Shown here piece by piece: positions 19,137 to 21,135 of a stretch of 64,000 bases of DNA. The notes under the pieces were generated by a model that worked only from the letters and a program-made list of their open reading frames with translations, was not told the origin of the DNA and made no database searches. Source of the DNA: Octopus vulgaris (taxonomy: Eukaryota). Where the stretch lies: NCBI GenBank assembly GCA_951406725.2, contig OX597820.1:12710001-12774000 (forward strand), written 5' to 3'. Position numbers and translations under genes: made by a program. Every line of letters begins with the position of its first letter. Within the stretch, counting starts at the first letter, position 1.

Positions 19137-19441
19137 ATATATATATATACTTATAATTTCAACAATTGAGGGTAAAATTAATTAATTATTAATTAATTTC
19201 ACCAAGTGTTCAGTATGCAAAGGGACCATTTAAGGCGAATTCAAATTATTACAATATATAAAAGGGCTTAGTAAAATAAATTACTTTGCCGCATACTGAA
19301 CTCATTAGAAATAGCAGCCAAAAAACCTTTTCAAAAACCATTTCTAATACTTAAAGAAAATCTCTCTCATATAGTGTTTGGTCAACTCAACTCACGAAAG
19401 TTTGGGGTAAAGACATCAAAAAATCAAATGCAAAGGTTATT

Positions 19442-19493
19442 TGAGAACGTACGTTTCAAGATTAGTCAACACGACACTTCTATCATCAGCTCA
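19442..19493 (-). ncRNA. type I hammerhead ribozyme motif
   Basis: UGAG-CUGAUGA-[stem II]-GAAAC-GUAC-GUU-CUCA. Confidence 0.75.
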
Positions 19494-19998
19494 GAAACTC
19501 CTTGGTTTGGATTTGAAAACACTGAAAGTGAGAGCATACTCTTTCGGCTTCTCATCGCTTTCGAAGATCTGCTCGTAACTAACAGTGCCAACAAACTCAA
19601 ACATGCAAGCGAAGAATTTCTGTTCTCCTTTCCACCAGCGTGGGTTAAAATCAACAAACACTCTGCTTATTTCGGTAAAATCCGAAGCATTAATTAGAGG
19701 AGATTAATTATAATTTCAACAATTGAGGGTAAAATTAATTAATTATTAATTAATTTCACCAAGTGTTCAGTATGCAAAGGGACCATTTAAGGCGAATTCA
19801 AATTATTACAATATATAAAAGGGCTTAGTAAAATAAATTACTTTGCCGCATACTGAACTCATTAGAAATAGCAGCCAAAAACTTTTTCAAAAACCATTTC
19901 CAATACTTAAAGAAAATCTCTCTCATATAGTGTTTGGTCAACTCAACTCACGAAAGTTTGGGGGTAAAGACATCAAAAAATCAAATGCAAAGGTTATT

Positions 19999-20050
19999 TG
20001 GGAACGTACGTTTCAAGATTAGTCAACACGACACTTCTATCATCAGCTCA
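19999..20050 (-). ncRNA. type I hammerhead motif (stem I mismatch)
   Basis: As 19442-19493 but the 3' strand of stem I is CCCA. Confidence 0.65.
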
Positions 20051-20234
20051 GAAACTCCTTGGTTTGGATTTGAAAACACTGAAAGTGAGAGCATACTCTT
20101 TCGGCTTCTCATCGCTTTCGAAGATCTGCTCGTAACTAGCAGATCTTAGTTACGAGCAGATCTTCGAAAGCGATGAGAAGCCGAAAGAGTATGCTCTCAC
20201 TTTCAGTGTTTTCAAATCCAAACCAAGGAGTTTC

Positions 20235-20286
20235 TGAGCTGATGATAGAAGTGTCGTGTTGACTAATCTTGAAACGTACGTTCCCA
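20235..20286 (+). ncRNA. type I hammerhead motif (stem I mismatch)
   Basis: TGAG CTGATGA TAGA..TCTT GAAAC GTAC GTT CCCA. Confidence 0.65.
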
Positions 20287-20791
20287 AATAACCTTTGCAT
20301 TTGATTTTTTGATGTCTTTACCCCAAACTTTCGTGAGTTGAGTTGACCAAACACTATATGAGAGAGATTTTCTTTAAGTATTGGAAATGGTTTTTGAAAA
20401 AGTTTTTTGGCTGCTATTTCTAATGAGTTCAGTATGCGGCAAAGTAATTTATTTTACTAAGCCCTTTTATATATTGTAATAATTTGAATTCGCCTTAAAT
20501 GGTCCCTTTGCATACTGAACACTTGGTGAAATTAATTAATAATTAATTAATTTTACCCTCAATTGTTGAAATTATAATTAATCTCCCTCTAATTAATGCT
20601 TCGGATTTTACCGAAATAAGCAGAGTGTTTGTTGATTTTAACCCACGCTGGTGGAAAGGGAGAACAGAAATTCTTCGCTTGCATGTTTGAGTTTGTTGGC
20701 ACTGTTAGTTACGAGCAGATCTTCGAAAGCGATGAGAAGCCGAAAAATGCTCTCACTTTCAGTGTTTTCAAATCCAAACCATAGGAGTTTC

Positions 20792-20843
20792 TGAGCTGAT
20801 GATAGAAGTGTCGTGTTGACTAATCTTGAAACGTACGTTCTCA
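20792..20843 (+). ncRNA. type I hammerhead ribozyme motif
   Basis: TGAG CTGATGA TAGAAGTGTCGTGTTGACTAATCTT GAAAC GTAC GTT CTCA. Confidence 0.75.
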
Positions 20844-21135
20844 AATAACCTTTGCATTTGATTTTTTGATGTCTTTACCCCAAACTTTCGTGAGTTAGTT
20901 GACCAAACACTATATGAGAGAGATTTTCTTTAAGTATTAGAAATGGTTTTTGAAAAGGTTTTTTGGCTGCTATTTCTAATGAGTTCAGTATGCGGCAAAT
21001 ATATTTATTTTATATATATATATATATTATATATACTTATATATATACTTATATATATATATATATATATATATACTTATATATATACTTATATATATAT
21101 ATATATATATATATATACTTATATATATATATATA

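Follow-up and report, generated by a model that had tools for sequence, protein, structure and literature searches.

The element described here lies in a window of 64,000 nucleotides, the whole stretch of Octopus vulgaris DNA that was analysed, and is a high-copy, non-coding 557-bp repeat that is likely to be a non-autonomous passenger of Penelope-like elements (PLEs), whose enzyme would cleave both strands at a (TA)n tract and write one RNA into the two ends. At the window locus, two divergent arms of the 557-bp unit lie between (TA)n tracts, and this structure is real. The locus is an ordinary member of its family; it is unusual only in its exact mirror point, found in about one in ten loci, and in the mirrored variants of its inner units.

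With unit positions (U) numbered in the ribozyme sense, as the reverse complement of 19151–19707, the long (left) arm occupies 19151–20138 on the minus strand and comprises 988 bp or 1.8 units, running outward from U127–557 into a full U1–557. Its outer terminus is the long 3′ end typical of the family and is fused directly to the left (TA)n target tract (19061–19149). The short (right) arm, on the plus strand from 20147 to ~20999, comprises 853 bp or 1.5 units and runs outward from U127–557 into U1–~428/436, so the inverted copy is only partial; it terminates in a TA-rich tract, 25–35 nt short of the family’s usual short end at U452–465, and the right (TA)n target tract spans 20999–21135. The arms are separated by an 8-nt spacer, GCAGATCT (20139–20146), which reads from the sequence as a templated insert: it is both the reverse complement of 20122–20129 and a direct copy of 20156–20163, sources that lie 10–16 nt away, and we take it to resemble the inserts left by end joining. 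Over 853 bp, the arms differ by no substitutions and eight indel runs, and 264C and 363G are common to both inner units, mirrored across the junction. The first-pass annotation had described about 1.8 tandem units followed by an inverted copy, mirrored inner and outer variants (GTTCCCA inside, GTTCTCA outside) and a spacer taken in reverse complement from its neighbourhood. Each of these descriptions was borne out at a unit period of 557 bp, with a right arm that is partial and a spacer that also has a direct source.

The mirror array that had been reported is thus present, but not as a locus-specific feature, because the two-armed form is the norm of the family. Genome searches returned 1,629 candidates for subfamily A and 2,729 for subfamily B, and the 40 best matches scored from each gave 39 + 40 distinct loci. 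This best-match sample is biased toward full-length units. A single inversion, with the 3′ ends facing outward in every case, is present at 61 of 79 loci, and 55 of these 61 combine one long end (U~556) with one short end (defined in this sample as U430–480). The short end falls at U452–465 in 29 of the 30 subfamily A loci with this combination, the window being the sole outlier. A position-ordered sample was built from the first 100 motif matches on one contig (C1), which trace to 52 insertions, three of them also in the best-match sample; it contained 39 two-armed and 13 single-armed insertions, and 29 of its 32 simple two-armed loci were again long plus short. Since the 13 single arms end long in seven cases and short in six, each site works alone, and the one-of-each composition of two-armed insertions shows that pairing is coupled. 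Both outer end points (U~556 and U~452–465) are TA-like, whereas the inner arm ends are variable and joined by microhomology or short inserts (overlaps at 35 and inserts at 15 of the 55 long-plus-short junctions). Units repeat at a fixed period of 557–560 in subfamily A and 565 in subfamily B, and the longest arrays comprise about ten. By analogy, the two-armed shape matches the inverted-copy-plus-tail form known for PLEs, whose insertions are described, in the available part of PMC8557442, as carrying an inverted 5′-truncated copy and a tail at one end only.

It had been raised as a possibility that the inversion is a long-read fold-back or an assembly artefact. The eight indel runs between the arms would suit such an origin, as would the fact that no short-read contig among those listed bridges the window junction. 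However, the mirror stops at the element ends, beyond which the flanks differ, the same form with fixed end points recurs at 61 of 79 and 39 of 52 loci, and contigs of two public runs from two studies contain an opposite-strand joint inside the unit. A mirror limited to the element, recurring fixed ends and short-read joints together make an artefact highly improbable.

For the window locus only, another history is plausible, though less likely than not: the cDNA of a long arm that arose first would have folded back on itself at its end, with the 8-nt insert as the trace, and been copied as a hairpin, or conversion would later have homogenised the arms. Either course would mirror the variants, since one arm copies the other, and the window arms indeed start at the same base with no substitutions in 853 bp; moreover, the pair 264C + 363G occurs only at this locus, whose short end is the sole outlier of 30. 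Exact mirrors also show a mild excess over permutation, with arm starts within 5 nt of each other at 5 of 55 loci in the best-match sample (permutation mean 1.8, p 0.03) and at 3 of 32 in the position-ordered sample (permutation mean 0.8, p 0.04). However, the canonical ends are both preserved at other mirror loci, and at one of these, L173, the arm with the short end exceeds its partner in length; L130 has a mirror junction but arm haplotypes that differ. Fold-back cannot explain the 12 of 55 long-plus-short loci in which the short arm exceeds the long arm, and the short arm is therefore not generally a copy of the long arm.

Copying of one RNA into both ends, which we favour for the family, is consistent with the distribution of rare variants. 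Units diverge by 0.3–0.7% within a locus and by 2.3–3.1% between loci. Variants were called rare when present in at most two of 93 loci, with subfamily A units below 95% identity, subfamily B units below 91% and locus L013 left out of the count. Of the 67 cases in which the site is covered on both arms, 62 have the variant on both, which points to a single RNA template for each insertion. When seen in at least two units of a locus, rare variants occur in every covering unit in 78 of 89 cases, and a further 159 are singletons. At L371 and L374, where each arm extends over unit sequence missing from the other, the rare 363G is nonetheless on both. In long arrays, rare variants fill all units (11/11, 6/6 and 5/5), which implies repeated copying of one monomer at some stage. 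As read from the sequences, the shared variants fit a process in which one monomer is copied again and again, for example on a circle, and the two arms come from the same RNA; repeated jumping on a linear monomer would give the same pattern. Mixed arrays, which are not expected from a pure monomer circle, exist at the window, L126, L130 and L119. In the ten-unit arm of L119, one variant recurs in units 3 and 7 only, possibly reflecting a multimeric template or a local duplication. At the window locus, the mirroring of the inner variants requires that both primers read a two-unit template from one and the same outer unit, or that one arm served as the copy source for the other. Separately, 264C is found at two other loci and 363G, in the window context, at four, all in other sub-lineages; no locus in the assembly besides the window has the two together, so the two-unit source for the window copy is absent from the assembly. 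ADAR editing was considered as the origin of the template variants and rejected (sense A>G 20 vs T>C 17, p 0.32). On the sense strand, template-borne rare variants comprise 22 G>A vs 8 C>T, a skew that singletons do not show (24 vs 28).

A different template has also to be weighed, with the same element and enzyme class: an uncut linear multimer, whose short end would be cut by the endonuclease at its own TA-like site during resolution, with the ribozyme as a passenger and no circle. This seems to us rather unlikely. The TA-like character of both end points and the heterogeneous arrays agree with it, and the available parts of two sources attribute tails to endonuclease-mediated resolution (PMC8557442) and report ribozyme mutants without effect on insertion and no reads ending at the cut site (PMC11167929). 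However, rare variants that fill all units (11/11, 6/6, 5/5) need repeated monomer copying, the ribozyme helices are kept through compensatory change, and the monomer is strongly self-paired as a predicted circle.

The ribozyme motif CUGAUGA..GAAAC-GUAC-GUU occurs four times at the locus, at 19489 and 20046 on the minus strand and at 20239 and 20796 on the plus strand; because the motifs are split two per strand, a transcript of either strand would contain just two in sense. The outer type I hammerhead motif of the right arm (20788–20847, plus strand, predicted cut after 20839) has a stem I of 4 bp, a mismatch and 1 bp, a stem II with a U.U base and a 3 × 3 internal loop, and a palindromic stem III. 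Its inner counterpart on the same arm (20231–20290, plus strand, predicted cut after 20282) carries U264C, which breaks the second stem I pair. The left arm holds an inner motif with the same U264C (19995–20054, minus strand, predicted cut after 20003) and an outer one (19438–19497, minus strand, predicted cut after 19446). The exact motif pattern has 1,848 matches in the 2.8-Gb genome against one for a reversed control pattern, so that the copy number, which the first-pass annotation had put forward for checking, proves to be high.

The hammerhead assignment is supported by the conservation of the motif. In an alignment of 18 motifs, hand-picked to span related unit families, the type I order of core CUGANGA, GAAA and NUH is present, with core columns invariant or nearly so. 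Helices I–III are paired in 95.6% of cells, with 9 of 14 pairs changed on both sides, against 24–42% for slid controls, the shuffle control being one that ignores relatedness; helix III pairs never vary. Across the motifs compared, the loops of stem II vary freely while its stems are kept. The canonical G10.1–C11.1 pair is absent at the helix II base, which is U.U in subfamily A and A.A in subfamily B. In motif-bearing sequence, the Rfam hammerhead models gave no match at the gathering threshold or at E ≤ 10, and folding of the isolated motifs is not better than that of shuffled sequence (z 0.83, 0.65 and −0.33). A type I hammerhead in each unit, as had been claimed, therefore finds support in the core motifs and helix compensation, but not in Rfam, nor in the inner units, where the stem I pair is broken. 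Rfam miRNA matches at 20064–20221 were rejected, as they lie below gathering scores and reflect the hairpin only.

Predicted energies of the hammerhead fold are 0.0 kcal/mol in the outer units, +4.8 kcal/mol in the inner units and −6.6 kcal/mol in a subfamily B copy at 32488–32999. From the difference between inner and outer folds, the inner ribozymes of the window copy are probably impaired, and with its broken stem I pair the window locus would probably be a poor source of monomer rather than a working source copy. The stem III palindrome ACGUACGU is predicted to form an 8-bp duplex at −9.8 kcal/mol; in a hairpin produced by read-through, the ribozymes would in addition be paired to their own antisense. 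The axolotl HHR_Amex2, with a 2-bp helix III closed by a tetraloop and a U.U helix II base, shares both features with the window motif and, in the available text of PMC7229834, cleaves weakly alone and better as a dimer, whereas Xenopus retrozyme dimers are reported to cleave in vitro in only one of nine cases (bioRxiv 2026.07.22.740005, as far as its available text goes). We therefore consider it probable for the family that self-cleavage takes place, presumably as ribozyme dimers formed through the ACGUACGU palindrome, with impairment in the inner units of the window copy. There is no clustering of arm 5′ ends at the predicted cut: one of 100 falls within 8 nt of it in the position-ordered sample, where about three are expected, and 1 of 110 in the best-match sample. 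The genome thus gives no direct sign of cleavage, and a cleaved linear monomer is not the usual template.

The predicted cut-to-cut monomer of 557 nt (20283–20839, plus strand) folds as a circle at −137.6 kcal/mol, with z-scores of −5.8 in subfamily A and −6.9 in subfamily B against 40 shuffles each. The unit has a GC content of 0.34, and its longest stop-free frame, of 140 aa, is antisense; six PLE protein pieces gave no significant tblastn match to it (best E 0.18), so a coding remnant was rejected and the non-coding nature proposed for the unit was confirmed. A conserved 3′ module of ~170 nt (20404–20577, plus strand), with three predicted helices, contains both family end points: in the predicted fold, the short end falls within the module’s long-range helix and the long end just beyond its last hairpin. 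Its helices are 93.4% paired across 13 sequences, with 5 of 27 pairs changed on both sides, and the module, which is common to several unit families, has 4,188 genome matches against one for the control. Further families with the module but with different hammerhead stems are present at L216, L198, L244, L261, L263 and L357–L363, with periods of ~545–565 and others. The sister copy from subfamily B at 32488–32999 (plus strand) is single-armed, ends at the long 3′ end in (TA)n, is 84% identical with a period of 565, and has a better paired hammerhead.

Other repeats were observed in the window. A fold-back insertion at 18834–19060, directly left of the element and between TA tracts, has 66-bp arms, a one-sided tail of ~95 nt and relatives in other loci. 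Another at 33093–33462, likewise between TA tracts, has 134-bp arms and a one-sided tail of ~100 nt and is related to hammerhead-bearing repeats such as L038:35–176, while a third at 59058–59300 has ~87-bp arms, a one-sided tail, flanking TA tracts and copies elsewhere at 92–98%. A U2 snRNA copy (159 bits) lies on the minus strand at 14461–14654, and a dispersed SINE-like repeat contributes a 184-bp unit in seven tandem copies at 12756–14046.

The family behaves as a non-autonomous, retrozyme-like element, since it combines a fixed period with the absence of any unit joined to a PLE gene. Searches by tblastn with PLE proteins through 190 element loci (with duplicates) and 59 more returned neighbouring fragments only, none joined to a unit, and an RT + GIY-YIG ORF within the element is absent in the loci examined. 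Matches to PLE proteins lie near elements, without being joined to them, at L011, L180, L118, L181, L355 and L174; L011 and L180 were rejected as ORF-linked copies, being nested behind TA tracts and other sequence. The units might be ordinary pLTR remnants of 5′-truncated autonomous PLE copies, a linkage that had been singled out for checking. In favour of such remnants, the insertion shape is that of PLEs (PMC8557442, in the part available), the loci sampled are a small part of all copies, and the partner search scored 150 of 6,136 GIY-YIG candidates, with Naiads left out. This origin is nevertheless improbable, because the unit joins itself at a fixed period (557–560 in A, 565 in B) and forms arrays as long as about ten units, and PLE-protein matches near elements are not joined to the unit, those at L011 and L180 being separated from it by TA tracts and other sequence; none of the loci examined has the unit joined to a PLE ORF.

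Intact RT + GIY-YIG frames in the genome, as recognised by Pfam, measure 781 aa and 574 aa; a frame of 1025 aa has GIY-YIG only, and one of 842 aa, which we treat as PLE-like on account of its motifs, has no RT or endonuclease match. Clade labels such as Neptune for PLE families are our own presumption. The 842-aa and 1025-aa families have two 3′ ends 60–80 nt apart together with inverted copies. Homology to the 3′ module or to the element termini was absent in all four ORF-bearing families checked (open frames of 781, 574, 842 and 1025 aa), in which respect the window family differs from these PLEs. Hence the claim of a PLE-mobilised retroelement in (TA)n stands as to its retrozyme- and PLE-type shape and its target, but no autonomous partner was found among these families. 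A young two-ORF PLE family (L094:1768–5468, L091–L096) encodes 479 aa plus the 781-aa RT/GIY-YIG frame and has pLTRs of ~500 bp, and its hammerhead-like motif has the core UUGAUAA, in a compensatory U3–A8 form. None of the public runs listed as containing the family is recorded as RNA; runs guessed to be RNA contain it as contigs, which show neither level, strand nor circles.

We propose a model in which element RNA would be transcribed and then self-cleaved, the usual template being, by a slight preference, a circular or repeatedly re-copied monomer. Once a PLE enzyme had cut a (TA)n target on both strands, each DNA strand would prime reverse transcription at its own site in the structured 3′ module, and the two cDNAs would be joined by end joining; at the window locus, both cDNAs would have stopped at U127 and been joined via the 8-nt templated insert. 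A purified PLE protein is reported to cleave both strands, to extend them and to begin copying at two internal RNA sites (PMC11167929), and mobilisation of retrozymes by PLE is proposed (PMC7229834, bioRxiv 2026.07.22.740005). A bolder version of the model, which we offer tentatively, is that one dimeric PLE enzyme writes each two-armed insertion on a single circular ribozyme RNA: the target ends would prime at the two fixed sites in the 3′ module, both reverse transcriptases would roll round the same circle, and the module, common to several unrelated-looking unit families, would be the recognition signal that metazoan retrozymes are said to lack. If so, the same two-site priming would account generally for the inverted copies and the tails that PLEs show. 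The formation of tandem and inverted PLE insertions is named as an open question in the available text of PMC8557442, and the enzyme that moves animal retrozymes is still inferred from co-occurrence. The family provides a compact RNA as a candidate template, on which both end points are mapped and a conserved, structured 3′ module is recognised; its young copies are numerous, and the rare variants common to their units link the two arms to a single template. Together, these properties make two-site priming and rolling-circle copying testable with purified PLE protein.

Among known systems, endonuclease-bearing PLEs and their pLTRs share with the window family partial tandems, an inverted 5′-truncated copy, a one-sided tail, (TA)n targets and a type I hammerhead with a palindromic helix III (PMC8557442, PMC11167929, PMC4209133, each in the part available). 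Unlike PLEs as described in those parts, the window family has no ORF, a period fixed at one unit and a tail of ~95 nt rather than 30–40. In L1 twin priming, two target-primed cDNAs from one RNA produce divergent arms with microhomology at the junction. The window family likewise has two divergent arms from one RNA and junction microhomology; unlike L1, its start sites are fixed, its arms overlap in template coordinates and its template is tandem or circular. Compared with metazoan non-LTR retrozymes, a unit of 557 bp exceeds the 150–450 bp given in PMC7229834 (2020) but is within the 51–972 bp of the 2026 preprint, in the text available of each. Described retrozymes differ, as far as that text goes, in that most insertions of the window family consist of a pair of divergent arms whose two outer ends are fixed; the word ‘inverted’ has no match in the text of PMC7229834 and occurs in bioRxiv 10.64898/2026.07.22.740005 in the reference list only. 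Our literature search found neither a retrozyme with two-armed, two-site insertions or a shared 3′ module nor a cephalopod retrozyme, although supplements and repeat databases may list the family or such an element. In the part of PMC7761336 available, metazoan retrozymes are described as having no conserved motif pointing to a partner, whereas the window family has a conserved, structured 3′ module common to several families. In other respects, the sequence-level features by which non-LTR retrozymes are recognised appear in the window family: tandem, non-coding, low-GC (34%) units with one type I hammerhead each, a strongly self-paired predicted circle and co-occurrence with PLEs (PMC7229834, bioRxiv 10.64898/2026.07.22.740005, PMC7761336, all from partial text). 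Known here from sequence alone, the family would, by analogy, function in the manner of metazoan non-LTR retrozymes, with a PLE providing mobility.
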